Shown: positions 213 to 44,938 of the stretch, piece after piece
Layout of the letters: each line of letters opens with the position of its first letter
Position numbering within the stretch: the first letter of the stretch is position 1
Sequence record: MH791409.1
Source: Escherichia phage EcWhh-1
DNA length: 64,000 nucleotides
Direction: 5' to 3' (one strand)
The notes under the pieces: model-generated
Told to the model about the DNA's origin: nothing
The model's input: only the letters and a program-made list of their open reading frames with translations
The model's database searches: none
Position numbers and translations under genes: made by a program

Positions 213-2033
213 TTATGACATCCAAGCCTTACGCAGCTGTGGGTCGTTTCCAAGGAGCATTTCGAACTGGTCTTTCCAATCTTCAGGTAATTGAACTACA
301 TCGAATTTAGGGTCTTGAATCATTCGACGGTATTCAGCCTTCTCAAGAGAACCGAGTCCTTTAATATAACGAATAGAATGCTTAGGTAGAGAGTCCTTAG
401 CTTTGGTATAACTAGGTACATCATAGAACCATTCCTGTTCTTTACCAACCTGAGCAATGATTACAGGAGTCTTACAGAAACGAATTCGTCCCTGTTCAAA
501 CAATTCCGGCCACTGACTAAAGAAAGCTAATAACGAAGGATAAATCGAACCAGTACCATCCACATCGGCGTCAGTCATGATAGCGATATTACGATAGTTG
601 GTTTTATCTGCAGGTTCACCAATAACCAGTCCAGTGATTGCACAGATATCAAACAATTCTTTGTTCTTCATGATATCGGCAGCAGTCATACCCCAGGTAT
701 TCATAACCTTTCCGCGTAACGGATAACCACCTTGGAGGTCTTTATTACGAACTTCAATGAAAGGACCCATTGCAGAATCACCTTCCGTAAGGAATAAAGT
801 CGTATCAGCATCTTTGCCATACATATTGGCTTTAATATGCTTATGGACCTTGGCTTTCAAAGCTTTCTTAGCAGCTTTTGTTTCGGCAGCCTTTTCAGCA
901 GCGAGCTTACGTGCTAATGCAGCCTCAATAATAGGCATCAACACAGCTTCATTAGCTAATATGGATTTAGCTAGTTTTTTAGAATCTAACTGAATATGCG
1001 AACGAATTTCACCATACGGCGATGTTAGACGTTCTTTAGTCTGGGAATCGAATCGCATATTTTTCATGCTTCGCACAAACATCAGCATCGTTAAACATTC
1101 TTTAATACGGGCTTTGGTTACTTCAATTTTAAACTTACGCTTAATTTGTGGGATAAGCTCGTCACAAATATCATCCATAACACATTCAACGTGGTGACCA
1201 CCGTTTTTAGTATGAATATTGTTCACGTACGTTAATTGTCGGAATCCATCAGGAGAGCGTCCTATAGATATCGAACAATTGTCCTGTTCTTGGATAATGC
1301 ACTCTTCGTCGAACTGTTTGGCGTATTTTTTAAACGACCCTTGGATTTTCTTACCATTAAATTTAAATTCAATATCAGGATAAATGACTGCTAAGGTTTG
1401 AAGTCGGTCAATGGTAATATCTTGATAAATTTTTTCAAATTGGTTCATTTCAAAGTGGCTAAAATCAGGTACAAATTCTACTTTGGTTCCATTAGTTTTA
1501 GATGGCTTTGATTTCCAAGAAACGTTTTCAGCGTTATTAGAGCAGTTAACAATAAGTTCAGATTTACCATCAGAAGTTGTGCCTGTAAACATCACAGAGA
1601 ATATATTTGTTAAACTGGAACCGACACCGTTTTGACCACCGGTAACACGTTCAGAGTCATCACCAAAGTTACCGCCTGCCTTGGTTTTTGTCCAAGCCGC
1701 GACGGGTCCTGGGATTTCTTCACCTTCAGGAGTAACCACTAGAGCTTGAGGAATACCACGGCCATTATCTTCTACAGTAACCTTATTAGAACTTAAATCA
1801 ATGCTTACTGAAATTTTGTTGGCAAACTTAAAATTAGTACGAATAGCTTCATCAACTGAGTTATCGATGATTTCATCAACTAATTTAAGAACACCCGCTA
1901 CATACCGTACTTTGGTAAACTCGCCGAAAAGAAATCGTTCATGGTCTTCAAATGATACACTTCCGATGTACATTCCAGGACGCTTAAGAACGTGTTCCTT
2001 ATCTGAAAGCATTTCAATTTTATTATCAATCAT
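213..2033 (-). CDS. 39: DNA topoisomerase II large subunit, uninterrupted gp39+gp60 type
   Basis: 606 aa. GHKL ATPase blocks (IIDNSVDEA, GQNGVGSS) and Toprim blocks (LTEGDSA, MTDADVDG). The C-terminal part, which T4 encodes as separate gp60, is in frame here. T4 synteny. Confidence 0.93.
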   Translation of the reverse strand: MIDNKIEMLSDKEHVLKRPGMYIGSVSFEDHERFLFGEFTKVRYVAGVLKLVDEIIDNSVDEAIRTNFKFANKISVSIDLSSNKVTVEDNGRGIPQALVVTPEGEEIPGPVAAWTKTKAGGNFGDDSERVTGGQNGVGSSLTNIFSVMFTGTTSDGKSELIVNCSNNAENVSWKSKPSKTNGTKVEFVPDFSHFEMNQFEKIYQDITIDRLQTLAVIYPDIEFKFNGKKIQGSFKKYAKQFDEECIIQEQDNCSISIGRSPDGFRQLTYVNNIHTKNGGHHVECVMDDICDELIPQIKRKFKIEVTKARIKECLTMLMFVRSMKNMRFDSQTKERLTSPYGEIRSHIQLDSKKLAKSILANEAVLMPIIEAALARKLAAEKAAETKAAKKALKAKVHKHIKANMYGKDADTTLFLTEGDSAMGPFIEVRNKDLQGGYPLRGKVMNTWGMTAADIMKNKELFDICAITGLVIGEPADKTNYRNIAIMTDADVDGTGSIYPSLLAFFSQWPELFEQGRIRFCKTPVIIAQVGKEQEWFYDVPSYTKAKDSLPKHSIRYIKGLGSLEKAEYRRMIQDPKFDVVQLPEDWKDQFEMLLGNDPQLRKAWMS

Positions 2034-2703
2034 TATGTTTTCTCTCGAATTGTTTTAAAATATTTTTATAGGACCCTTCAGGAAATCCACGTTTAATACT
2101 TTCTTTCATGAATTTAGCCAGTTTAGGTTTATCTAATTCTAACCATAAATCTTCTAAAGCGGATTCATATTCCCAAACAGGGCTTTTACGATTTTTAAGA
2201 CCGCATTTGATTAAGGCCTCGTCTGTATGTTTCTTACCAAAGAAAGGGTTGTTTTCTTTAGCCATTGCTTTGGAATGTTCAGGGCGTTTAATCCCATACA
2301 TAGGGTTAAGTTCACCTAATTTAAGGCCTGATTGGATTTTTATAGTTTCATGAGAATGATGTTTGTTAAAGAAAGGATTGTTTTCTTTACTAACGTCGGA
2401 GCCGAAAAATCCTTTAGGTGCTGCAGTTGCTCTATTAAAAAATAAATCAGATTTAGCCGCATTATTAAGGACTTGATACTTATACTCCGCTTTAGTAGCT
2501 TCTTCTCTTGTCTCGAATTCTTCAACTATCAAACTATCGAAAAGCTCAGGATGGGCAGCCAATTCAGACTTGTAAATCTCTTGGTACTTTTTAGATTTTA
2601 CGGAGCCGTGGTATCCGTTTAAATGTTTTTCTAGGCTAGTCGAACCTATATAAAATGGAGGTAATTTGTCTCCGGAATAAATCGTCAAGTAAACTATAAA
2701 CAT
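2026..2703 (-). CDS. GIY-YIG homing endonuclease (Seg-like, free-standing)
   Basis: 225 aa. N-terminal GIY-YIG (IVYLTIY...FYIGST). Repeated NNPFF(N/G)KKH and NPMYG NUMOD3-like repeats. Stop overlaps the gene 39 start by 8 nt. Confidence 0.8.
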   Translation of the reverse strand: MFIVYLTIYSGDKLPPFYIGSTSLEKHLNGYHGSVKSKKYQEIYKSELAAHPELFDSLIVEEFETREEATKAEYKYQVLNNAAKSDLFFNRATAAPKGFFGSDVSKENNPFFNKHHSHETIKIQSGLKLGELNPMYGIKRPEHSKAMAKENNPFFGKKHTDEALIKCGLKNRKSPVWEYESALEDLWLELDKPKLAKFMKESIKRGFPEGSYKNILKQFERKHND

Positions 2704-12598: not shown

Positions 12599-13120
12599 TT
12601 AATAACCTCGGTCTTGACGAGCAAAGTTCTCGGCATTTTTCAGGTAATACAGTTTAAAGATTTCTTCAGCGGTCAGTCCAAGACCCTGGAACATATTCAG
12701 AACAAAGTGCAGAATATCAATCATTTCGAATTTAATTTCGAGCTGGTCTTCAGGAGACAAATCGTTAATCAGGGTTTCACGACGTTCAGCATGTTGAGCT
12801 TTCCAAGGCTTCCATACTGCAGATGCATCTTTTTCACCATTGCTCATACCACCAAGAGAAGTCAGAAGTTCACGGAATTCGTCATCAATATAATCTTTCT
12901 GGTTGCGAAGCCAATCGACAACTTCACCCGCAGTGGCCAAATCATCAGGATGACGATTATATTCAGGCTTATCTTTAGCTAAACGAACCTGCAAAGATTT
13001 CTGCATATCAAGCATAACCTGCAGAGGGTCTTTATCTTCGTGAATCAGAGCATTAAAATAAGCTTCTTCAGCTTTATCGGCACCGGCAATCAGTTGAGAA
13101 CATTCATTAAAATGAGCCAT
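12599..13120 (-). CDS. 56: dCTPase-dUTPase (dCTP pyrophosphatase)
   Basis: Start at ATG 13120 (MAHFNE, AAGGAAA SD). Strongly similar to T4 gp56 (PLQVMLDMQ, IDDEFRELLTSLG, EIFKLYYLKNAENFARQDRGY). Confidence 0.93.
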   Translation of the reverse strand: MAHFNECSQLIAGADKAEEAYFNALIHEDKDPLQVMLDMQKSLQVRLAKDKPEYNRHPDDLATAGEVVDWLRNQKDYIDDEFRELLTSLGGMSNGEKDASAVWKPWKAQHAERRETLINDLSPEDQLEIKFEMIDILHFVLNMFQGLGLTAEEIFKLYYLKNAENFARQDRGY

Positions 13121-13161
13121 TATATTTTTCCTTATCAATTCATTTGTTAGTAAGTTAGATA

Positions 13162-19859: not shown

Positions 19860-19887
19860 ATTATATCACTTCACAGCTACAGCATTA
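19860..19887 (-). promoter_or_regulatory. MotA-type middle promoter for uvsX
   Basis: taATGCTGTA (19887-19878), 12 nt, TATAAT (19865-19860). Confidence 0.5.
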
Positions 19888-20016
19888 CTTAATTCCTCGG
19901 TTGATAGCCTTATCGACTATCTTCCGAACTTCTCGTTTCTCGAGCCACACTAATAATAGCAAGCCTCCGAAAGAGAATAATAACAAACCTATAAAAAGCA
20001 ATAGAGGACCTAGCAT
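19885..20016 (-). CDS. single-pass membrane micro-protein, 43 aa
   Basis: Below cutoff. GAGGA SD. ATG 20016 overlaps the upstream stop by 7 nt. MLGPLLLFIGLLLFSFGGLLLLVWLEKREV... Confidence 0.45.
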   Translation of the reverse strand: MLGPLLLFIGLLLFSFGGLLLLVWLEKREVRKIVDKAINRGIK

Positions 20017-20903
20017 ACTACGTCCTCATAACGTGGCATTTCGTATTCAGAATGAATATTGGCACCGAAATAAATGAATTCAGCCAGACCAGGATGGAAT
20101 ACTAAACCTGGGTTCTCATGATAAATGATATGTGGTCTTGATTTCAGAATTTGATAATATTCAACCTTACTCGGTTTGAATTTAATAATCTCTACATCAG
20201 GACGATAGTCTTCGCGCTTAAATGAATCATTAGGGTCGGTGATATAAAGACGAGCACCTTCAGCGGCAGCTTGGTCTACAACTCTTTCGAATTGATAACA
20301 CTTATCCGAAATACGGAATGGATGGAAAATACCATCAATTTTAATAGGCGCTAGACCTTCAGAGTAACGCTCAATTACTGCAGGATTAATTACCTTTTGG
20401 TCTACAAAAATCTTATCAGAGGATGCACCTCGTGACATCAGGACGTCTTTCTGGCATTGATTCAAGACTGTAGTATAAAGTGAACGTTCAACTGAAGCCA
20501 CATCAATATCAATGAACTCGTCGATATAATAACGAGGAACTTCAGGGTCCATTGTGATATTAAAGTTGAATTGTACAGTATGAGCACCATCATAACCGGT
20601 GATATCGGTCACCAGTCCTGAGCAATCATAGTATTCGATTAGTGAATCGACTACAAACTCATTTTCAGACCAGAAATGTTTACGGGTTTCATAAGCATTT
20701 TCTTTATACCAAAGTGGTACGAAATTCAGTTCTGGGAATAATTCAATGCATTCTTTGATATCGCTCGAATTTCTAGGATAAGCCAGATAATCACCTGGAC
20801 GAGCACGATTTAAATGGAGTTGAAAATTACCGTCCTTAAGGACGGCATATTCACCTGTTTCGTAACTACGCATACTGAAAATAGGAACGATAAACAAACT
20901 CAT
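20010..20903 (-). CDS. orphan 297-aa protein in the beta-glucosyltransferase slot; candidate hmC glycosyltransferase
   Basis: ATGA-coupled to gene 42. Not alignable by eye to T4 beta-gt, except for a loose GT-B-like block IFHPFRISDKCYQFERVV versus T4 GGSFRSGQRESKMVEF. Confidence 0.35.
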   Translation of the reverse strand: MSLFIVPIFSMRSYETGEYAVLKDGNFQLHLNRARPGDYLAYPRNSSDIKECIELFPELNFVPLWYKENAYETRKHFWSENEFVVDSLIEYYDCSGLVTDITGYDGAHTVQFNFNITMDPEVPRYYIDEFIDIDVASVERSLYTTVLNQCQKDVLMSRGASSDKIFVDQKVINPAVIERYSEGLAPIKIDGIFHPFRISDKCYQFERVVDQAAAEGARLYITDPNDSFKREDYRPDVEIIKFKPSKVEYYQILKSRPHIIYHENPGLVFHPGLAEFIYFGANIHSEYEMPRYEDVVC

Positions 20904-21598
20904 TTCAGGAAACCTCGGACGTAGTCAAAATCACGTTCAAACACGTGTGCACTTACCATGGTGTGGGAATATGTACCTAAACCGACACCACACTGTTCAG
21001 CAATAAATGCCATCAGTTTACCCTGCAGATAGAAATCCAGCTGCATAACAACGGCGCAGTTTTGTGAACGCATATGAGTGTGTGCATACAGACGTCCATC
21101 ACGAATATAATATGTTACCGAATCGGTACACGGATATTCTAGGGATTCGTCAGAATCAAGGAGGGCTTGGTCTTGTTCTTGGAGAATTTGGAACACAACT
21201 CGTCTCGAGTTAGGCTTTTCTTTAAGCTCTTTAAGTAGGGCTGGGAGTTGGGCCACAATTCGAGGGCCATAGAAAGTGTTGAAGTTTGCAGGCAATACGT
21301 CACTTTTCGGCTTATCAATGAACTTAGCAACATTAGGGTATTCCTTAAATGCTTCGGCAGCGTCAGTACCACCAGAAATCATAAATTTCCAAAAGGATTC
21401 GGCATATTCATAACTAATACGATTGATACGTGGGTCGGTGAATTTATAGGTGCTTGCATCCAGTACTTCTACCGAAGCAGAACCAATTTCATAACAACGT
21501 CCGATACGAGAATCAACTGCAAACTGTGGAGCTTCCAGGATTTCTTCGTTCATTTGTTTAAATGCATTTTCAAAACTAACAGCGGTAATGTGTTTCAT
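20900..21598 (-). CDS. 42: thymidylate-synthase-family deoxypyrimidylate hydroxymethylase (divergent gp42)
   Basis: 232 aa. Conserved blocks: KPNSRR, YPCTDSVTYYIRDGRL, HMRSQN, SAHVF. Lies at the T4 gene 42 position, but is much more diverged from T4 gp42 than its neighbours are from their T4 counterparts. Confidence 0.7.
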   Translation of the reverse strand: MKHITAVSFENAFKQMNEEILEAPQFAVDSRIGRCYEIGSASVEVLDASTYKFTDPRINRISYEYAESFWKFMISGGTDAAEAFKEYPNVAKFIDKPKSDVLPANFNTFYGPRIVAQLPALLKELKEKPNSRRVVFQILQEQDQALLDSDESLEYPCTDSVTYYIRDGRLYAHTHMRSQNCAVVMQLDFYLQGKLMAFIAEQCGVGLGTYSHTMVSAHVFERDFDYVRGFLK

Positions 21599-22131
21599 TT
21601 ATTCACCTTATTTTCAATATATTCGTTCAGACGTTTTAATTCTACCATATCAACATTAAGCAAATTATTATGGCCGTCATGATTTAAGATTTTAAACACG
21701 TTTTCAAAACATGTTTCGTATTGCCGGATAGTTAGGTTGAACTCATCTTTGGTTAATTTAATAAGGTCGTCTTCGAAGTCTTCGTCTAATGGATTGCGAG
21801 TTAAAATAACCTCGATAACGTTAAATTCGGATTTAAACCCTTTCCAATCTTCCAGTTCTACATAAGGGTCCATTTCACCACGAAGGAATCCTGAGTAAAC
21901 AATATTACTTGGATAACCACGGTCAAGGATATAAACGAAATTAGGGTCTAAAAACTTATACAGAGTTTCAACTAAAGCCTTATCGTTATCAGTTCCTAAT
22001 GAAATACACTTGCCATTAATCTTTTTAGGAAAATCAATAAGGCGGTATTTCTTATTGGATAACAGATTTTTAATTAAAGTGGACTTCCCGGAATTATCCG
22101 GGCCGTCTATAACAATGATTTTTGGATTCAT
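21595..22131 (-). CDS. P-loop (thymidylate/dNMP kinase-like) kinase
   Basis: 178 aa. Walker A VIDGPDNSGKST, DRG motif. ATGA overlaps at both ends. Confidence 0.55.
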   Translation of the reverse strand: MNPKIIVIDGPDNSGKSTLIKNLLSNKKYRLIDFPKKINGKCISLGTDNDKALVETLYKFLDPNFVYILDRGYPSNIVYSGFLRGEMDPYVELEDWKGFKSEFNVIEVILTRNPLDEDFEDDLIKLTKDEFNLTIRQYETCFENVFKILNHDGHNNLLNVDMVELKRLNEYIENKVNK

Positions 22132-22511
22132 GGATGATAGGCCTTATAACTATCAAGAGTTCCTTCACGAACCATTTCTTTAAAGTGGTCAGGACGGATT
22201 GCTCGGTCATCGATGATAAAAGTATAACTCGGCTTATGCGTAAGCAGATTATGATATTTCAATCCAATCTTTTCAAGGTTCTTAACCAATGCAGGAACTA
22301 CTTCAACCAAGATTCGACCTGGGCCACATGAAGTCATGCCACGGGCAGTGAATAATGTAATCTCGTACCCTTCATCATAAAGCTTATTAATCATGGACAC
22401 CATTTCGGTGTCCGGTTTAAAGTTCTCATAATCACGGTCATGGTTCCAAATCGTGATTGTGTTATCGATATCAAAACATAAATGTGGCTTATTTTCTACT
22501 CGATGCGACAT
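22128..22511 (-). CDS. HAD-superfamily phosphatase
   Basis: Motif I FDIDNTIT, motif II LFTAR, motif III KPSYTFIIDDR. ATG 22511 is TAATG-coupled (alternative start ATG 22526). Confidence 0.6.
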   Translation of the reverse strand: MSHRVENKPHLCFDIDNTITIWNHDRDYENFKPDTEMVSMINKLYDEGYEITLFTARGMTSCGPGRILVEVVPALVKNLEKIGLKYHNLLTHKPSYTFIIDDRAIRPDHFKEMVREGTLDSYKAYHP

Positions 22512-24184
22512 TAAATTTTCTTCCATTGTTTGTGGAGTTCAGTAGAACCTGTAGGTTTATATTTTACACCAGTTTCCTGGTCAAGCAAAACCCACTTATC
22601 AGGACAACGAGTAATAATTTGAGCCGTGATAGGGTCACGAACTTCATCGACAAATTCACCAGTAATAAGCTTACGCTTATGAGGATGCCGCTTCAGCAGC
22701 ACACTCAGTTGATACAAACCGTTATAATAAGCACCCAGAGCTTTCAGAGGGTTATTCTTAAAGTAACCTGCCAGCGCCATCCAAATAACAGCAATCCAGA
22801 GCTTGTGCTTAAATGTGCACATAGGAATATCGTCTAAAGGCATAACCTTTTCGATATCAACGAATACACGAGTTCCGTTACGAGTTAATCCACCCCATAG
22901 AGGGTCTGAGTTAAATTTGTCATAGCCATCGATAGAATAAAGCACCTTAGCTTCATCATAAATCGCAGGGCCTTTAGAACTATTACCGAAATAACCACGT
23001 GGGTCGATGATTTTAATATCACCTTCGTCCGACAGCATAATATTACTGTAGTGCGGGTCGCCATGAATAAGTTGGTACGGTTCTTTATGTTCAGACAGAA
23101 TTTCTAGTGCATGGCGGAGAAGTTTTTCGGGGTCGCCTACTTTGAAATCGTTAACATAGGTAATGCCCTGTGGAGCAAAGCCTTCAATCAATCCGGCAAT
23201 AGAAGCATTACGAATAAGGACCTTGTCCAACACTTCTTTCTTAACATCGGAATACCATTGCTCATCGGACGGGTTATCGATAGTTCCACCGAATGAACGT
23301 AATGCACTAATGACCTTATAAACCATGAGGACTTTAGTTTCTTTGGACATAAACCGGTAGGCATCTGCCATGGTACGACCAAAGATACGTTCCATTTTAA
23401 TGAATTCGCCTGGAGAAAAGTCTACAATGCTAGGAACGAATTCAGAATCAATAGAATTATACCAATTGATTTCTTTAGATTGAATTTCTTTACCTAATTC
23501 GTTAGTTGGTACTTTAATAGCCAGATTCTCGGTGAACTCTAATTTATTAAATTCACGGTTAATTTCAGAATCTTCATGGGCCTTGGCAAGTTTCAATTTG
23601 TCACCGACATCAACTACAAAATCCAGTTTACGTTCAGTCAAATAGACCATTGAATCCAGGTTATCAGCAAGGTCTTCGCCATAATTAGAACGGTCGAAAC
23701 CTGTCCAATTGGCTACCTGATACAAACCAACTACACCGCCACCGGTACCAATTTCACGTAAGTACGGTTCTTCAAATGTAAAGCGACAGTCAGTTCCATA
23801 GGTATAACAATAGTCGTTACCCCATTCAACTTTATGACCGATAGGAATGATGTCACACCAGTTAAACAGGACATTATGGCCAATGATATCTTCGGCAATG
23901 CAATCGATAGCATGAGCTGAACCATTAGCAACATCAACGTTACGAATAGTGAATTTAGGCTTATCACCAGTAATCATGTTAATGGATTTAATATAGCCTT
24001 TAACGAGGTCGTTAAATTTGCTGTGAATAACCAGAATAATTTCATCTGATTGGTTACTATACAAATCATACAAATGTTTTAATACCGTATGTTGTTTGTA
24101 GTTAACCAATACCTTTGGGATTTCGTTAGTAATTGGATACAACCGTGAGCCAAGACCTGCGCCTAAAATAACAACCTTTTTCAT
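22511..24184 (-). CDS. bifunctional sugar-1-phosphate nucleotidyltransferase / APH-choline-kinase-like kinase
   Basis: Start at ATG 24184 (GAGGAA SD). N-terminal VILGAGLGSRLYPIT...PKVLV (GxGxRL NTase). C-terminal LIHGDPHYSNIM...IIDPRG (Brenner HGDxxxxN plus Dxx). Confidence 0.65.
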   Translation of the reverse strand: MKKVVILGAGLGSRLYPITNEIPKVLVNYKQHTVLKHLYDLYSNQSDEIILVIHSKFNDLVKGYIKSINMITGDKPKFTIRNVDVANGSAHAIDCIAEDIIGHNVLFNWCDIIPIGHKVEWGNDYCYTYGTDCRFTFEEPYLREIGTGGGVVGLYQVANWTGFDRSNYGEDLADNLDSMVYLTERKLDFVVDVGDKLKLAKAHEDSEINREFNKLEFTENLAIKVPTNELGKEIQSKEINWYNSIDSEFVPSIVDFSPGEFIKMERIFGRTMADAYRFMSKETKVLMVYKVISALRSFGGTIDNPSDEQWYSDVKKEVLDKVLIRNASIAGLIEGFAPQGITYVNDFKVGDPEKLLRHALEILSEHKEPYQLIHGDPHYSNIMLSDEGDIKIIDPRGYFGNSSKGPAIYDEAKVLYSIDGYDKFNSDPLWGGLTRNGTRVFVDIEKVMPLDDIPMCTFKHKLWIAVIWMALAGYFKNNPLKALGAYYNGLYQLSVLLKRHPHKRKLITGEFVDEVRDPITAQIITRCPDKWVLLDQETGVKYKPTGSTELHKQWKKI

Positions 24185-24244
24185 TATCTGTTCCTCAAGT
24201 GAATGTAGGTACATTATACACTATTTTTAATAAATTTCTATTGC

Positions 24245-24745
24245 TTAAATCTTATCTTTACCGTATTCCATGCACTGTTCTACTGCAGCAGGCACTTTGG
24301 TCTTAAGCTTGTTGATTTGTTTCTTATAATCACGAGCCTTATCGAAGCTCTCGGTTTCGAGCATTTCGTAATAACGAGCCTCGTGGACAGAAATCTGTAG
24401 ATTGATATGGTTTACACACATGGCATACAGTTTCTGCTTTTTGTACAAATCATCTTGGCGCTTCATTTCTGCCTGGTGTTTGGCTAGTACCGCTTCACGC
24501 TTAGACTCTTGTTCACGTTGGAATTCGATTTCCCTTTGAGCATATTTTGCACAGTTATTACCACATTGATTATTAGCTCGGGTGTACACAAGTCCAGAAC
24601 CGGCACGGAATTTCATTTCGCCGTCGAATTGTTTCTGTTCAGCTGCGATACGAGCTTTACCAACTTCATCAGCAGAAACTGCATCACCGTATTGGACTGC
24701 GCAACCTGATAGGAGCATACTCATTGCGATAATTAACTTTTTCAT
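24245..24745 (-). CDS. predicted lipoprotein, 166 aa
   Basis: MKKLIIAMSMLLSG|C lipobox. Coiled-coil-like, charged mature part. Confidence 0.6.
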   Translation of the reverse strand: MKKLIIAMSMLLSGCAVQYGDAVSADEVGKARIAAEQKQFDGEMKFRAGSGLVYTRANNQCGNNCAKYAQREIEFQREQESKREAVLAKHQAEMKRQDDLYKKQKLYAMCVNHINLQISVHEARYYEMLETESFDKARDYKKQINKLKTKVPAAVEQCMEYGKDKI

Positions 24746-40003: not shown

Positions 40004-40187
40004 ATTTTTCAAATGTACTATAGAACGAACGATGCAACCGTTTAAATTGACGAATCATCTTTTTGGTAGGGCGAGTATACAATCCTACACAGGTGGCCAT
40101 AAACTGGTCGGTAGGACTTCCTTTGATAAGAAGTTTCCAGACCTTACTGCCATCCAACTTTTCGGTATAGACTAATTTAGTTTTCAT
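40002..40187 (-). CDS. RPTKRQ-motif small basic protein, 61 aa
   Basis: TRPTKKMIRQFKRLHR motif. Third family member. Confidence 0.55.
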   Translation of the reverse strand: MKTKLVYTEKLDGSKVWKLLIKGSPTDQFMATCVGLYTRPTKKMIRQFKRLHRSFYSTFEK

Positions 40188-40360
40188 CAGAACGCCTTAT
40201 CAGCAAAGCGAAGTTGAGCTTCAAGCCAATGGATATAGTCGGCTGCAGCTTTAATCAAATCGGATTCTAGGTCAGGTAAAGAACCCGAATCCGACAACTC
40301 GTAAAGCGAATGTTCAATCAGACGGCCTTTGTGACGGCCAATTTCAATTTTGGTACTCAT
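40187..40360 (-). CDS. hypothetical small protein, 57 aa
   Basis: Below cutoff. GGAG SD. TGATG junction with the next gene. MSTKIEIGRHKGRLIEHSLYELSDSG... Confidence 0.45.
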   Translation of the reverse strand: MSTKIEIGRHKGRLIEHSLYELSDSGSLPDLESDLIKAAADYIHWLEAQLRFADKAF

Positions 40361-40523
40361 ATCCAAACTCCATATCGATTAAATCATTGTTTGAAGGTTC
40401 ATTATACTCTATTTCGGAATCGTTGTAAACCGGTTCCTCTGGCTCGGTAGTTTCCCACCGAGCGACATACCATGGCTTAACGGTCACACCACCAACTCGA
40501 TACTTCAAAATCGGGTTCACCAT
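40344..40523 (-). CDS. hypothetical acidic protein, start uncertain
   Basis: Only the C-terminal part (VKPWYVARWETTEPEEPVYNDSEIEYNEP...) is free of the overlap with 40477-40785. Candidate starts are ATG 40523 or an in-frame GTG about 11 nt before the upstream stop. Confidence 0.3.
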   Translation of the reverse strand: MVNPILKYRVGGVTVKPWYVARWETTEPEEPVYNDSEIEYNEPSNNDLIDMEFGYEYQN

Positions 40524-40785
40524 CTTCCCAGTACCAAGGGCCGACCGGGTGCCAATCGCCGTGTTCATCTTCTTCAAATTCTTCGGATTCAAGCCCAACG
40601 TATTGCCATTGGACCTCATAAGCGGTGCCACCAATTACAACAGTGTTCTCGCCATACGGGTGAGCTACAGCAAAGTCTATACCTTCTGCTTTAGCCAGCC
40701 AAACCATATATTCGTATAGTTTATATTCCAGGTCATCTTCGGTGCCATCACCTAGAAAAATGGTTTGTTCGTTTAATTCAATCAT
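40477..40785 (-). CDS. hypothetical acidic Trp-rich protein, 102 aa
   Basis: Coding-strand ORF with a 4-nt overlap onto the upstream gene. Confidence 0.55.
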   Translation of the reverse strand: MIELNEQTIFLGDGTEDDLEYKLYEYMVWLAKAEGIDFAVAHPYGENTVVIGGTAYEVQWQYVGLESEEFEEDEHGDWHPVGPWYWEDGEPDFEVSSWWCDR

Positions 40786-40970
40786 AATTCCACCATAAAT
40801 TCAAATAGCTGGTCACGTACACAAGTATCAGTCCAACCCCATTTGGTGGCTTCTTCTTTTAACCAATCCGGGAGATTTGCCAATACGGTTTCTTTACTAG
40901 GCGCAGGAGTATCAAACTCACTTGCAAACTCTCTTGCGCAGGTTCCATAAGCTATATCAAATTCGGTCAT
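40782..40970 (-). CDS. hypothetical protein, 62 aa
   Basis: Start moved to ATG 40970 (MTEFDIAYG), ATGA-coupled to the upstream micro-ORF. Confidence 0.5.
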   Translation of the reverse strand: MTEFDIAYGTCAREFASEFDTPAPSKETVLANLPDWLKEEATKWGWTDTCVRDQLFEFMVEL

Positions 40971-41134
40971 TTGAAGTTCCAGAATGAAGCACCAACCAGA
41001 AATAAAGGCCAACAAATCATAGACGTCAGCCACCAACAAAAGTCACCTGCACCGAAATCATCTAATTTAGCTAGGGTCTTAGCATAACCAATACCGATGA
41101 TAAGATACAAAATACCCAACAATAATTCAATCAT
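40967..41134 (-). CDS. membrane micro-protein, 55 aa
   Basis: Below cutoff. ATGA coupling at both ends (nrdC stop and next start). MIELLLGILYLIIGIGYAKT...WPLFLVGASFW. Confidence 0.5.
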   Translation of the reverse strand: MIELLLGILYLIIGIGYAKTLAKLDDFGAGDFCWWLTSMICWPLFLVGASFWNFK

Positions 41135-41394
41135 TTGAAATACGCTCGCAGTTGGTCAAAGCCACCAATAGAAGTTCCATCGGGAGCAAATACCTGTGGC
41201 ATAGTCAAACCTACCTGAGATTCACGTCCAAGAGCAGCCAGGAGTTCGGCAATCTTCTCATCATCAAATACACCTTTTTCCGGCATCACGTTAATGAATT
41301 CGTAAGGTTGTTTCTTAACATCAAGCAGACGTTTGGCATTATCACAGAAAACACAACGGTGAATATTTGAATCGTAACCATAAACTTTAAACAT
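41131..41394 (-). CDS. nrdC: T4-type thioredoxin/glutaredoxin
   Basis: 87 aa. MFKVYGYDSNIHRCVFCDNAKRLL...MPQVFAPDG..IGGFDQLR is near-identical to T4 NrdC. Confidence 0.95.
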   Translation of the reverse strand: MFKVYGYDSNIHRCVFCDNAKRLLDVKKQPYEFINVMPEKGVFDDEKIAELLAALGRESQVGLTMPQVFAPDGTSIGGFDQLRAYFK

Positions 41395-41395
41395 T

Positions 41396-41632
41396 TTAAA
41401 TTCCTAATATTTGTTTGAATGCTTCAGAACGGTCGAGTTCTGTTCCATATTTTTCCGTGTGCTCATTTTTTAAATCATACACATCAGATAGTATATTATT
41501 ATACGAACGAGTTAAAGCAGATTTTAAAACTGAATAACTGTCCGGAAATTTACCGTGCTCTTTATAATAAGCTAGAGTAAGTTCGCGGACTGCCTTATCG
41601 GCAGCCTCTACATATTCTTTACGCTTTGCCAT
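41396..41632 (-). CDS. hypothetical protein, 78 aa
   Basis: Start moved to ATG 41632 ([15 protein letters not shown]). Overlaps the upstream stop by 14 nt. Confidence 0.45.
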
Positions 41633-41930
41633 TTTCGTCTCGCTCAAATCGGTGTTTGCAATGGCGGCATTTATATCGAAGATTACTGGTTTGCCAATGG
41701 ACCAATTGAACCTGTTCTGTGCCACACTTAGGACAGTTAGGAACATTCTTAGAAGCTTGTTCTCGTCGTGCGACCATAGCCATTACAGCATCCCAATTAA
41801 CGGCATCACCATAATCATCACAACCATGAATTTTACCGACCAATTCAACTTCAACATCCTCGGCTTTAATAAATTTCAATAAACCGGTATTAGATGCTGA
41901 AGCAATATCTTCAGCTAAACGTTGTTTCAT
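41619..41930 (-). CDS. zinc-ribbon protein, 103 aa
   Basis: CPKCGTEQ...CRHCKHRF. 4-nt overlap with the upstream gene. Confidence 0.55.
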
Positions 41931-42937
41931 TTCAGCAGCTCCAGAGCCTGTTCAAGACGGTCTAAACGATTGGTAGACTCTTCCCAAAGTTTCTTGGCAG
42001 CGGTATATTGCCCGGTCAGTTTTTTGTTAATAGCCAAGGCATCTTTATACGCTTTTTCTAAGGCAACGATTTCCGGTAACTTGGATTTAGTAATTGGTGT
42101 ATGGGCCATGATAGGGCTGTTCAAGTCGTTAATCAAGTCTTCTAATGTAGCAGGCTCTTTATCAGTATTCACAATTTCCTCACATTTTTCTTGGTAAATT
42201 TCAGCGTCAGTTTTTGGAACGGTACATTTGATTTCGCGAACTGTTACTAAGACCTCATATCCTTTCCAGCCTAAGCGGTGTTTAACTTCTTGGGTCTCAT
42301 ATTTCTCTACTGTATCCATCAAAGCTAGGGCTTGTTCGATAGTATTCAAGGTATCGTAAGCAATATCTTGATACTTTACAACTTCCGCATCATCTTTAGG
42401 TTTCCTATTAGGTGACCAAATAACAGAAATAATAGCTTTTCCTTTATAACTATTTGTTTTAATCATGCAATTAGCCATCGGGTGAATAGTACGACAATCA
42501 CCGGAAACTATAGTTTTAGAGGCCGCTTTGAGAATTAATGCAGAGTTAGCCTTGAATTCGCTAACCCAACGTTGCGGAAATAAACTACTAGGGTCCATAC
42601 CTTTAATTTTGATATAACCTTTTATGGTATCACCAAACCATTTGTAGCTAACAACGTGGCTAGAACCCGGATATTTCTCTTTACCGAACTCAGAAAGGAT
42701 GTCCTTATTGACCAGTCGAGAAAGCAGTCGAGAACCTTTAAATGTATCTACGATATCAGGAATAAACAAACGACCCGCTATCTTTTCGATTTCAGCTTTG
42801 AAACAGCGCGATAATGCATCATCAATTTGGTCGACCCATTTATTGATATTAGAAACTATTACCACATATGGGGTTAATGGAGGGGTGTTGGCAGTGATAT
42901 ACGTAGTAAAGGCATTGATGTATTCAGTACGAGTCAT
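41927..42937 (-). CDS. hypothetical protein, 336 aa, C-terminal coiled coil
   Basis: Own early promoter. Tail ...[22 protein letters not shown]. Confidence 0.6.
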   Translation of the reverse strand: MTRTEYINAFTTYITANTPPLTPYVVIVSNINKWVDQIDDALSRCFKAEIEKIAGRLFIPDIVDTFKGSRLLSRLVNKDILSEFGKEKYPGSSHVVSYKWFGDTIKGYIKIKGMDPSSLFPQRWVSEFKANSALILKAASKTIVSGDCRTIHPMANCMIKTNSYKGKAIISVIWSPNRKPKDDAEVVKYQDIAYDTLNTIEQALALMDTVEKYETQEVKHRLGWKGYEVLVTVREIKCTVPKTDAEIYQEKCEEIVNTDKEPATLEDLINDLNSPIMAHTPITKSKLPEIVALEKAYKDALAINKKLTGQYTAAKKLWEESTNRLDRLEQALELLK

Positions 42938-42963
42938 GATATTCTCCTCAAGTTGATAGAAAG

Positions 42964-42993
42964 ATTATACTCCATCCATCCTTGGATGTAAAC
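42964..42993 (-). promoter_or_regulatory. early-type promoter
   Basis: GTTTAC (42993-42988), 18 nt, TATAAT (42969-42964). Confidence 0.55.
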
Positions 42994-42994
42994 A

Positions 42995-43870
42995 TTATTT
43001 TAGAGCTAATACTGCAGCGCGGAGCTTGTCACGCTGGAGTTCCATGTTCTTGATGCGAATCAATACGTCTTGGATACTCTTTTTCTCATCTTCGATCTGG
43101 CCGTTTAAACGGTGGATTGATTCCTGGAGATGGTCCTCATGATACTTCTCGATAGGTTTCATCGTAGGGTTAGTAACCACCATAGAATTATCAGGTGTAA
43201 TTTTCCAATGATACGGTTTGGAATTGAATGGACTCGGTACAGCCGTGGTTTTGAATTTGTCATAGGCTGCATACTGGCCTACACTGTCACATGATACTGC
43301 AGAGGTAGAGATACGTCGTTCCATTTGTGGGTCCTTTTGTTGGGATTGGTAAGGGGCATAAGACAAAAGATATTCGCGAGTTAGTTTAATTCTGATGTAT
43401 ACTGCATCAGCCAGCCCGGAACATTCTGCGTACTCGTCAGTAGTAACCTTATATGATTCTACAGCCTTAATACGAGCCATTGCTTCTCTGAATAAGGTTT
43501 CAAATGCTTCACGAAGGGCCTTATTACCTTTTGAGGTAGGACGGAAACGAACTTGAACACCATCATCCAAAATATTAATGACCAGGTTACGAGCTGTAAA
43601 ATTAATATTTTTGATATTGACAGGAACCGTAGAAATACGCCCTGCAGTAGCCAATAGGTCTTTGATATTAGCTCGTAATGTTGCACCAAACAGATGGGCC
43701 GGGCTACGGCAATAATCATTCAAAGAGCTGATGTAAGTTCCTTTACGGCCTACACCATAAGTATAATTACCATTACAAATATGACCAAAGTCAGCTAGGC
43801 GGTCAATAGCGATACGACGAGTCGTGTCATGGTCATAGATGGAATATTCTTTACGTGTTTTAATGTTCAT
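42995..43870 (-). CDS. hypothetical protein, 291 aa, C-terminal coiled coil
   Basis: ATG 43870 lies 1 nt after the upstream TAA (the track start lies further upstream, inside the neighbouring gene). Tail ...IKNMELQRDKLRAAVLALK. Confidence 0.55.
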   Translation of the reverse strand: MNIKTRKEYSIYDHDTTRRIAIDRLADFGHICNGNYTYGVGRKGTYISSLNDYCRSPAHLFGATLRANIKDLLATAGRISTVPVNIKNINFTARNLVINILDDGVQVRFRPTSKGNKALREAFETLFREAMARIKAVESYKVTTDEYAECSGLADAVYIRIKLTREYLLSYAPYQSQQKDPQMERRISTSAVSCDSVGQYAAYDKFKTTAVPSPFNSKPYHWKITPDNSMVVTNPTMKPIEKYHEDHLQESIHRLNGQIEDEKKSIQDVLIRIKNMELQRDKLRAAVLALK

Positions 43871-43871
43871 A

Positions 43872-44087
43872 TTAAAGTCCAAATAATTTTTCATAGAGTT
43901 TAGCAATAGGCCATAGAACTAGCATACATAGCCAGGCAAAGCAAAATACCGGCCATACGAATGTAATGAATACTGCATCATAGCTTGATTCAATTTCAAC
44001 CGGGTTCCATGCACCGGACTTATGAACAAATAATGCAGTAATAAATCCTATCACAAGATATCCAATAATAAAACTGATAATTTCCAT
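43872..44087 (-). CDS. membrane protein, 71 aa
   Basis: Two predicted TM segments (IISFIIGYLVIGFITALFV; FVWPVFCFAWLCMLVLWPI). Confidence 0.55.
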   Translation of the reverse strand: MEIISFIIGYLVIGFITALFVHKSGAWNPVEIESSYDAVFITFVWPVFCFAWLCMLVLWPIAKLYEKLFGL

Positions 44088-44089
44088 AA

Positions 44090-44938
44090 TTAATCCTTAA
44101 GAAGATTTAGGATATCGATATATTTTTGACGTTCAGCCTTAGCTTTAGCATTCAGACCAGAGAGTCGGAAAATCTCATCATCTTGTTGTTGGATTGTAAC
44201 ATTCAAGCAAGTAAGCAAATTGCTAAAATACTCAATCTGGGCTTGATGCTTCTCATTGCTGCGCACTGGCACAGGTTCCGGTTTAGGAGCTTGTTCTGAA
44301 GGCTCTTCAGTCAGGTCTTTAATTTGGTACAGTTTAATACGCTGACCCGCTCCAGTTTCGGCATCACCAAAACTAAGAACACCATGCCGTTCTAATTCAG
44401 ACAGGGCTAAGCGCAGGTGGAACTTCCAGTTGTCATATTGACAACCACTATAAGTGGAAACAATATACCCACCATGTTCAGGTATTTGACTTTTAATAAT
44501 ATTAAAGACAATCCAATCGCCTGAACCATTGGTCTTAAAGGTCATTTGTTTATCAAGACCTTTTGCAAGGCGAGCGCCAAGAGCCAGTAGACGCCGTTGG
44601 TTGGCATGAAGGTCTTGAACAACTTCGTCAAATGACATCGCCGGGATTAAACGACCATAAAGGTCGTAGCCTTTGTTATAATTTTTAAGAATAATTTTGG
44701 CATTAGCACGAGACAACATACCTGTTTTACGAAGAGTTTTCATGACTCGGTCTTCTAACGTAAACGAACCTTTAGTCTTGTCAAAGATTTTAGTGAAGTC
44801 ATCTTTAACAGTACAAACATTGAACTTGTCCCACATCATATATAGAACCCTTTCAACCACTTCATTAGAACTCGGAATAAAACCAAAATTAATAACTTTT
44901 TTAACTTCAGAACGAATTTGATTAATTGCCTGTGACAT
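44090..44938 (-). CDS. hypothetical protein, 282 aa, C-terminal coiled coil
   Basis: Shares its leader and MSQAI start with 37043-37372. Tail ...AKAERQKYIDILNLLKD. Confidence 0.6.
   Translation of the reverse strand: MSQAINQIRSEVKKVINFGFIPSSNEVVERVLYMMWDKFNVCTVKDDFTKIFDKTKGSFTLEDRVMKTLRKTGMLSRANAKIILKNYNKGYDLYGRLIPAMSFDEVVQDLHANQRRLLALGARLAKGLDKQMTFKTNGSGDWIVFNIIKSQIPEHGGYIVSTYSGCQYDNWKFHLRLALSELERHGVLSFGDAETGAGQRIKLYQIKDLTEEPSEQAPKPEPVPVRSNEKHQAQIEYFSNLLTCLNVTIQQQDDEIFRLSGLNAKAKAERQKYIDILNLLKD

Follow-up and report, generated by a model that had tools for sequence, protein, structure and literature searches.

A minimal five-gene gene cluster of Dhakavirus phages with a predicted role in arabinosyl-5-hydroxycytosine synthesis

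The stretch analysed here (the window, 64,000 nucleotides of Escherichia phage EcWhh-1, MH791409.1) contains a run of five minus-strand genes for putative sugar-activating and DNA base-modifying enzymes. In transcription order these encode a fusion of a nucleotidyltransferase (NTase) and a kinase (22511..24184, 557 amino acids (aa)), a HAD phosphatase (22128..22511, 127 aa from the start at 22511), a P-loop kinase-like protein (21595..22131, 178 aa), a protein with the thymidylate synthase (TS) fold (20900..21598, 232 aa) and a 297-aa protein, hereafter GT1 (20010..20903). The list of open reading frames (ORFs) agreed with the first-pass annotation on all five genes and their coordinates. The ORF form of the first gene (22511-24214) has an internal ATG at 24184, which had been chosen as the start. 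We also consider 24184 the better start, because the ATG at 24214 falls within the TATAAT hexamer of a promoter-like site and a GAGGA ribosome-binding site precedes the ATG at 24184. For the HAD gene the longest ORF (22128-22526) offers an alternative start at 22526; both starts are in use among public records, and 22511 is the one that gives an overlap with the preceding gene.

The four junctions read TAATG, ATGA, ATGA and ATGA, as described earlier, when they were taken to mark one translational unit. The run of four overlaps fits a single coupled unit, but as evidence for functional linkage the overlaps alone are weak, because about a quarter of the junctions in this genome are of the same kind. 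In a hand count from the annotation table of the close relative UP19, 1- or 4-nt overlaps made up ~28 of ~107 same-strand junctions (26%) between 100 and 150 kb, and runs of three such overlaps occurred twice there, among unrelated small ORFs. A promoter-like site (TAGAAA-16-TATAAT, 24213..24240, minus strand) lies upstream of the operon and scored 10/12 in a consensus scan, as a pattern match only. Taken together, the single promoter-like site, the GAGGA element and the four overlaps are consistent with the five genes being one expression unit. The case for their functional linkage rests on homology and co-occurrence.

Over a 4.9-kb region covering the cluster, identity was 99.6% to Escherichia phage UP19, 99.3% to IME281 and 98.2% to JS98 and JS10, all members of Dhakavirus, and by this kinship the window is Dhakavirus DNA. 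The cluster occupies a slot common to this clade and to Mosigvirus, between DNA polymerase/imm and uvsX. In T4 the interval between uvsX and gene 43 holds segA, beta-gt, 42, imm and imm.1; the first-pass annotation, which had named only beta-gt and 42 between uvsX and imm/43, was nearly right. The RefSeq notes of JS98, from a 2007 annotation, already name RB69 orf047c, 048c, 045c, 051c and 052c as relatives of the five genes. Several public names are misleading. The HAD phosphatase is called 'phosphoheptose isomerase' (in RefSeq, including JS98 and UP19, and in PHROG 1238) and the TS homologue 'thymidylate synthase' or 'dCMP hydroxymethylase'; 'thymidylate kinase' and 'hypothetical protein' are also among the labels given to the five genes. 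The transferase region goes under 'RNA polymerase binding protein' or 'capsid and scaffold protein' in certain records.

To assess homology, the annotated gene clusters of Bas47 (Mosigvirus) and DLP3 (Lazarusvirus) served as tblastn queries. The TS homologue matched PF00303 (E=3.9e-14) and was 80.5% identical to Bas47_0147 and 71.6% to DLP3 gp80, as compared to 25% over 159 aa for T4 gp42. In the PDB it matched 9iqu, 9iqc and 9ir2 (E=1.7e-126), MilA (3e-14) and T4 gp42 (1b49, E=1.1e-5), with 1b49 ranking under MilA and many ThyA entries. We infer that 9iqu, 9iqc, 9ir2 and the HAD entry 9iqw come from phage HY126, since the neighbouring entry 9iqz is named 'phage HY126 glycosyltransferase'. The window protein was aligned with those of Bas47 and DLP3, with T4 gp42 and with the phage's own td. 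The catalytic Cys157 (Cys146 of E. coli ThyA) stands in an invariant column. At the position of ThyA Asp169 the window protein has Asn180 (D169N, motif MRSQN), likewise Bas47 and DLP3, whereas T4 gp42 (MRSND) and td (QRSVD) keep Asp. Asp188 (N177D) and Glu154 (L143E) are also present; both are common to gp42 and so do not discriminate a hydroxylase from a hydroxymethylase. The D169N substitution is found in those Straboviridae groups that produce 5-hydroxy-dCMP (5hodCMP) and has been proposed as a hydroxylase signature, and nine of nine further enzymes selected by it made 5hodC; the TS homologues RB69 gp48 and DLP3 gp80 make 5hodCMP (PMC13326640). Because of the 80% identity to the Bas47 enzyme, the match to 9iqu, the D169N residue and the 25% identity to T4 gp42, we consider that the TS homologue is, as judged from its homologues, a dCMP 5-hydroxylase (5hodCMP synthase) and not a hydroxymethylase.

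The NTase-kinase combines PF00483 (residues 13-110) with the APH domain PF01636 (residues 356-427). It was 42.5% identical over its full length to Bas47_0151 (E=1e-128), 44.8% to DLP3 gp82 (E=1e-137) and 80% to a protein of Klebsiella phage Marfa, and the NTase domain gave weak matches to HddC models and HddC-like PDB entries. The catalytic motifs of both domains are kept across 20 homologues: G10, R14 and K24, HGD(374-376) and N381 of the catalytic loop (HGDPHYSN in the window protein) and D394 are invariant in both lineages described below. An IDPRG motif is conserved as well. This protein is probably an AfhE-like sugar-1-phosphate nucleotidyltransferase joined to an APH-type sugar kinase, the activities being those of its homologues. 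The HAD protein matched PDB 9iqw (E=6.9e-54), 1xpj (E=4e-12) and TIGR01689, a capsule-biosynthesis phosphatase/HAD-IIIA model (E=1.1e-14). It has motif I (DIDNT) in its translation and shares 62% identity with Bas47_0150 and 64% with DLP3 gp81. It is predicted to be AfhF-like and to convert arabinofuranose-1,5-bisphosphate to arabinofuranose-1-phosphate.

Lee 2026 (PMC13326640) cites He 2026 (Nat Chem Biol) and Mahler 2025 (Cell Host Microbe) for the pathway. In the passages of Lee 2026 that draw on He 2026, HY126 AfhE is described as bifunctional, both an arabinose-5-phosphate kinase and a UDP-arabinose pyrophosphorylase, and AfhF as a Mg-dependent phosphatase acting on arabinofuranose-1,5-bisphosphate to give the 1-phosphate; the same route is proposed there for RB69 gp52:53/gp51 and DLP3 gp82/gp81. 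This route supports the NDP-arabinose supply through a sugar bisphosphate that the first-pass annotation had suggested for the kinase, HAD phosphatase and NTase. Three metagenomic proteins of 922-946 aa (P0184, P0198, P0210) each hold HAD, SIS (isomerase-type) and NTase parts and a region matching the kinase in one polypeptide; P0184 and P0210 are distant NTase-kinase homologues. In such fusions the four steps from ribulose-5-phosphate to NDP-arabinose are independently tied together.

GT1 gave no match in Pfam, NCBIfam or PDB sequence searches. An AlphaFold2 model built on a 41-sequence alignment (pLDDT 95.0, pTM 0.89) has the GT-B two-Rossmann fold, and Foldseek concurred. GT1 was 67.6% identical to Bas47_0146 and 49.8% to DLP3 gp79. 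The model and these identities point to a predicted base-proximal alpha-arabinosyltransferase of the DLP3 gp79/RB69 gp46:47/Bas47_0146 family, and the new transferase of the earlier hypothesis is supported by the fold of this orphan protein. The P-loop protein has a GPDNSGKST P-loop and an LDRGY motif, belongs to PHROG 761 ('thymidylate kinase') and was 38% identical to Bas47_0145 and 40% to DLP3 gp78, homologues of RB69 gp45.

Co-occurrence was determined in 51 IMG/VR loci encoding a GT1 relative, which were scanned for all components within 10 kb. Almost everywhere the P-loop kinase occurred together with the TS homologue and GT1, and nearly every locus had GT1 directly downstream of the TS homologue; the exceptions are mainly cut contigs or the most distant matches. 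Because the P-loop kinase accompanies the TS homologue and GT1 even in contigs without the NTase-kinase and the HAD protein, it is probably a nucleoside-monophosphate-kinase-like enzyme of the base branch, rather than a member of the sugar route to which it had first been assigned. In the metagenomic contigs concerned (L038-L053) no gene for an NTase-kinase, a HAD protein or an isomerase lies within 10 kb of the trio. The viruses may draw on an NDP-sugar of the host or attach a different sugar to 5-hydroxycytosine (5hoC).

For genome-wide absences, tblastn was run against the whole genome of UP19, the nearest relative, standing in for the window's own full genome. An arabinose-5-phosphate isomerase (Bas47_0153, DLP3 gp83, RB69 gp55) was found neither in the window nor in the UP19 genome. 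The UP19 genome also gave no match to the U32-like protein (Bas47_0149, RB69 gp50), to the small gp49-like ORF of Mosigvirus or to the second and third transferases (RB69 gp3, DLP3 gp76 and gp77), and at the position of the Mosigvirus transferase, rIIA to gene 39, it has only small ORFs, where tblastn found nothing. Neither the window nor the UP19 genome has T4 alpha-gt or beta-gt, the one match, of 36 aa, being a chance one (E=0.03-0.07); for the window this agrees with what had been judged by eye. The cluster is a minimal five-gene variant, with no isomerase, second glycosyltransferase or U32-like gene. We considered the 'phosphoheptose isomerase' of JS98 and UP19 as the missing isomerase and rejected it; it is the mislabelled HAD phosphatase.

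In RB69 and DLP3 DNA an arabinofuranose is ether-linked to 5-hydroxycytosine, as determined by nuclear magnetic resonance (NMR), mass spectrometry and 18O2 labelling, and arabinosylated 5hoC is present in the DNA of Bas46/Bas47, RB69, DLP3 and HY126 (PMC13326640). In a Mosigvirus 5-ara-dC and 5-ara-ara-dC were identified, and the earlier assignment to 5-hydroxymethylcytosine (hmC) was called erroneous (PMC13390438). Dhakaviruses are listed among the clades with a syntenic cluster (PMC13326640). We regard the five genes as the Dhakavirus version of the arabinosyl-5-hydroxycytosine pathway, with a probability of roughly 80%. Our analysis covered gene structure, homology, active-site signatures, transferase fold and gene content; the enzymatic activities and the identity and number of the sugars are carried over from homologues.

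The pathway would start with the T4 gp56-type dCTPase, which would deplete dCTP and yield the dCMP substrate. Its gene, noted previously in the window, lies at 12599..13138 on the minus strand (PHROG 173, E=1.6e-46) and is not linked to the cluster. The TS-fold enzyme would then hydroxylate dCMP at C5 with flavin and O2 to give 5-hydroxy-dCMP. A T4 gp1-type dNMP kinase, and possibly the clustered P-loop kinase too, together with host Ndk would raise this to the triphosphate, and the phage polymerase would insert the 5-hydroxy-dC nucleotide instead of dC. On the sugar side, D-arabinose-5-phosphate would be phosphorylated at C1 by the kinase domain at the C-terminus of the 557-aa protein, the small HAD phosphatase would take off the 5-phosphate to leave arabinofuranose-1-phosphate, and the N-terminal NTase domain would combine this with UTP to form UDP-arabinofuranose. 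GT1 would finally place arabinose on the 5-hydroxyl through an ether linkage. Because a phage isomerase is absent, the arabinose-5-phosphate would come from host KdsD/GutQ, and the earlier proposal of host KdsD as the source fits the missing isomerase across the UP19 genome. Because there is a single glycosyltransferase, mono-arabinosyl-5hoC is expected. By analogy with Shewanella phage Thanatos, we predict that Dhakaviruses make mono-arabinosyl-5hoC from arabinose-5-phosphate of host KdsD/GutQ.

Several points weigh against this pathway. No chemical analysis of Dhakavirus DNA was found in the literature searched, so that the product assignment stays a prediction, and the gene absences outside the window rest on the UP19 genome. 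Purified DLP3 gp79 was inactive on 5hoC-containing DNA with UDP-arabinofuranose (UDP-Araf) or UDP-Arap, as were the other DLP3 transferases when purified individually, and Lee et al. left undecided if DNA or a mononucleotide is the acceptor of the first arabinose (PMC13326640). For the Thanatos homologue of GT1, TH1_063, the reported function is that of a UDP-xylose pyrophosphorylase, in conflict with a role as transferase. The part of the P-loop kinase in the pathway is putative; the gp1-type kinase of RB69 already phosphorylates 5hodCMP (PMC13326640). Further, identity between the NTase-kinase and the characterised lineage is no more than 42-46%, whereas the enzymes of the far more distant DLP3 and of Mosigvirus share 57%, and the neighbours of the kinase catalytic loop differ, HGDP-HY-SN here as compared to HGDP-NF-SN in the characterised lineage. 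The sugar could therefore differ.

The NTase-kinases of the loci separated into two lineages. Lineage A comprises Mosigvirus, phages of Yersinia, Serratia and Edwardsiella, DLP3 and PspYZU05 (54-73% identity within the lineage), and lineage B comprises Dhakavirus, Klebsiella Marfavirus, and Proteus PM2-like and Providencia phages (71-80%), with 42-46% between the two. Within 10 kb an isomerase was present in every full-length lineage-A locus and in no lineage-B locus, the Marfavirus loci (L018, L019, L021) included. Counts of phage records agree with this (GT1 352, isomerase 276, lineage-B enzyme ~80), and Klebsiella is not among the ten commonest organism names of isomerase records, while GT1 and the NTase-kinase are present in ~25 records of Klebsiella. 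Two Proteus-type loci, L032 and L034, are 87% identical in GT1, 82% in the TS homologue and 75% in HAD, but 47% in the NTase-kinase, and only one of them has the isomerase; it seems that a module formed by the AfhE lineage and the isomerase was exchanged. A discussion of this correlation between isomerase and AfhE lineage was not found in the portions of literature text examined. Outside Straboviridae, the jumbo Sphingomonas phage PAU (NC_019521/JQ362498, 154226-157185) has an isomerase, gp212, near a distant NTase-kinase, gp215 (28%); the pairing of isomerase and AfhE is therefore old and widespread.

These lineages give some room for a pathway with the same 5-hydroxycytosine base and a different sugar, in which the lineage-B NTase-kinase would activate another, abundant pentose phosphate of the host, such as ribose-5-phosphate, and the product would be a pentosyl-5hoC other than the arabinosyl form. 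The divergence of lineage B, its consistent lack of the isomerase, the record counts, the L032/L034 pair and the position of the lineage-specific residues, two of which adjoin the kinase catalytic loop, all speak in its favour. We nevertheless find it unlikely. The proteins that would have to recognise the sugar, GT1 and HAD, are not unusually diverged, neither in the L032/L034 pair nor between Dhakavirus and Mosigvirus (68% and 61% identical, respectively), and 153 NTase-kinase positions, all catalytic motifs among them, do not vary between the two lineages. All hosts concerned make arabinose-5-phosphate for Kdo synthesis, and for this reason it is more parsimonious to assume that a redundant isomerase was simply lost.

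A change in the order of steps is likewise doubtful. Here the first sugar would go on ahead of replication, with free 5hodCMP as the substrate of the GT-B protein; the P-loop kinase would serve to phosphorylate the bulky arabinosyl-5hodCMP, which would be beyond the gp1-type kinase, and the polymerase would use the glycosylated dNTP. Such a route fits the near-universal trio of TS homologue, GT1 and kinase, which also stands in contigs with no sugar-activation genes nearby and in Rhizobium phage RL38J1, a galactose user (PMC13326640 Table 1), and whose three genes are joined by ATGA overlaps in the window. It also agrees with a GT1 that is small for a DNA glycosyltransferase, with the negative result for DLP3 gp79 and the undecided level of the first transfer, and with a second nucleotide kinase that otherwise appears redundant with the gp1 homologue. 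On the other hand, the T-even paradigm and the later steps shown for DLP3 gp76 and gp77 act on DNA, and expression of just the hydroxylase and a gp1-type kinase is enough for 5hodC to enter DNA readily (PMC13326640). An extended form, in which a nucleotide-level pathway of the trio departs from T-even post-replicative glycosylation and the lineage-B AfhE might additionally supply a pentose other than arabinose, seems to us improbable to a similar degree.

That the TS homologue is instead a gp42-like dCMP hydroxymethylase, with arabinose or another sugar placed on hmC, is highly improbable, for although the Pfam domain, the name in several public records, the shared N177D and L143E residues and a 2018 report of arabinosyl-hmC in RB69 (PMC6024577) would agree with it, the protein is far closer to its Bas47 homologue than to gp42, the RB69 counterpart of that homologue, gp48, hydroxylates dCMP, the protein has the D169N that gp42 lacks, and the 2018 structure has been revised on the basis of NMR, mass spectrometry and 18O2 labelling (PMC13326640, PMC13390438). 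The first-pass annotation, which had relied on arabinosyl-hmC in RB69-type phages, was right on the families of the NTase-kinase, HAD, P-loop and TS proteins, and wrong on hydroxymethylation and on hmC as the base; the RB69 modification is arabinosyl-5-hydroxycytosine.

The arabinosyl-5-hydroxycytosine pathway is already known: work of 2025-2026 characterised it in close relatives, and the carriers named include Dhakaviruses. Nor is the module itself new, given the 2007 link of the JS98 genes to RB69 and the listing by Lee et al. (NAR 2026, PMC13326640). What we add, relative to those parts of the literature that were examined, is the minimal five-gene variant, which has neither isomerase nor second transferase and always comes with a distinct AfhE lineage. 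This variant is a natural test of the host contribution to the pathway, and with its single transferase a clean system for locating the step of the first sugar. Dhakavirus DNA is expected to carry arabinosyl-5-hydroxycytosine, not hmC, and the public gene names need correction. Phages of the JS98 type have been studied for phage therapy, and the profile of protection and sensitivity conferred by the modification bears on the choice of therapeutic phages. According to the part of PMC13216743 that cites Mahler 2025, the modification gives protection from type II restriction, from the Brig1 glycosylase and from type I CRISPR-Cas. Modified DNA is still targeted by GmrSD-type enzymes such as BrxU (PMC13390438).

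Other features were observed around the cluster and elsewhere in the window. A 43-aa, strongly hydrophobic ORF (19885..20016, minus strand), whose sequence starts MLGPLLLFIGLLLFSFGGLLLLVW, has an ATG that overlaps the GT1 stop (ATGCTAG) and is a candidate sixth coupled gene. It is present in four Dhakavirus loci (L012-L014, L017), not in two others (L015, L016), and is annotated in CLB_P2 only; it may belong to the module, although its membership is uncertain. Between imm and the operon lies a gene for a 166-aa protein (24245-24745, minus strand) with a lipoprotein-type signal, MKKLIIAMSMLLSGC, which belongs to PHROG 1754. Weak homologues (28-33% identity, with one shorter match of 46%) occur at the same place in isomerase-carrying loci. 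As a stand-in for the isomerase in lineage-B phages this protein was rejected on account of its lipobox and these homologues. In window segments 1-1888 and 40183-44097 identity to UP19 falls from ~98% to 83-88%, which indicates mosaic exchange with other Dhakaviruses; the window is therefore not from UP19 itself. Directly upstream of the homologue of topoisomerase gene 39 (213-2033) there is a 225-aa ORF (2026-2703, minus strand) with a GIY-YIG-like N-terminus (...PPFYIGST...). UP19 has no sequence matching this ORF and the window is ~700 bp longer there, and the ORF is probably a seg-type homing endonuclease insertion.

The predicted pathway resembles several known systems to different degrees. 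With the HddA/GmhB/HddC and HldE/GmhB heptose routes it shares the logic of a kinase, a HAD phosphatase and an NTase working through a sugar bisphosphate, and the same phosphatase and NTase superfamilies. However, the window kinase is APH/choline-kinase-like and fused to the NTase, not GHMP or ribokinase-like, and the substrate here would be a pentose-5-phosphate; the likeness is one of chemical logic alone, with no orthology. The T4 system (gp56, gp42, gp1, alpha-gt and beta-gt) lies in the same neighbourhood and also proceeds from dCTP depletion through dCMP modification by a TS-fold enzyme to incorporation and glycosylation. In T4, hydroxymethylation depends on folate, whereas hydroxylation with flavin and O2 is predicted here; the sugar would be ether-linked straight to the C5 oxygen, and its donor would be made by the phage instead of being host UDP-glucose. 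There is neither alpha-gt nor beta-gt here, and the TS homologue shares only 25% identity with gp42.

The Mosigvirus cluster (RB69 gp45-gp55 and gp3; Bas46/Bas47; Afh of HY126) has homologues of all five window genes and the same dCTPase, and alpha-gt and beta-gt are absent in both. It differs in having the isomerase (gp55), the U32-like gp50, the small gp49-like ORF and a second transferase, gp3, between rIIA and gene 39, none of which is found in the window clade. The P-loop kinase gene stands between those of HAD and the TS homologue in the window and after GT1 in Mosigvirus, both kinases (the NTase-kinase and the P-loop protein) belong to divergent lineages, and a mono-arabinosyl product is predicted here as compared to the mix of mono- and di-arabinosyl forms in Mosigvirus. 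Acinetobacter phage DLP3 (Lazarusvirus), with tri-arabinosyl-5hoC, has homologues of all five in gp76-gp83, likewise with tight or overlapping junctions; in addition it has the isomerase gp83 and the GT-B transferases gp76 and gp77 for the di- and tri-arabinosyl forms, which the window clade lacks. In Shewanella phage Thanatos, with a mono-pentosyl cytosine, there is a single GT1-type protein (TH1_063), as here, next to an NTase-kinase (TH1_060) and a TS homologue (TH1_062), and its product has been called mono-arabinosylated (PMC13326640). Both host and phage are distant, and the Thanatos NTase-kinase groups with lineage A, at 43% identity to the window protein; its best published BLASTP match is a protein of Yersinia phage TG1, a lineage-A member. 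With its single transferase, Thanatos would be the best precedent for a mono-arabinosyl modification in Dhakaviruses.

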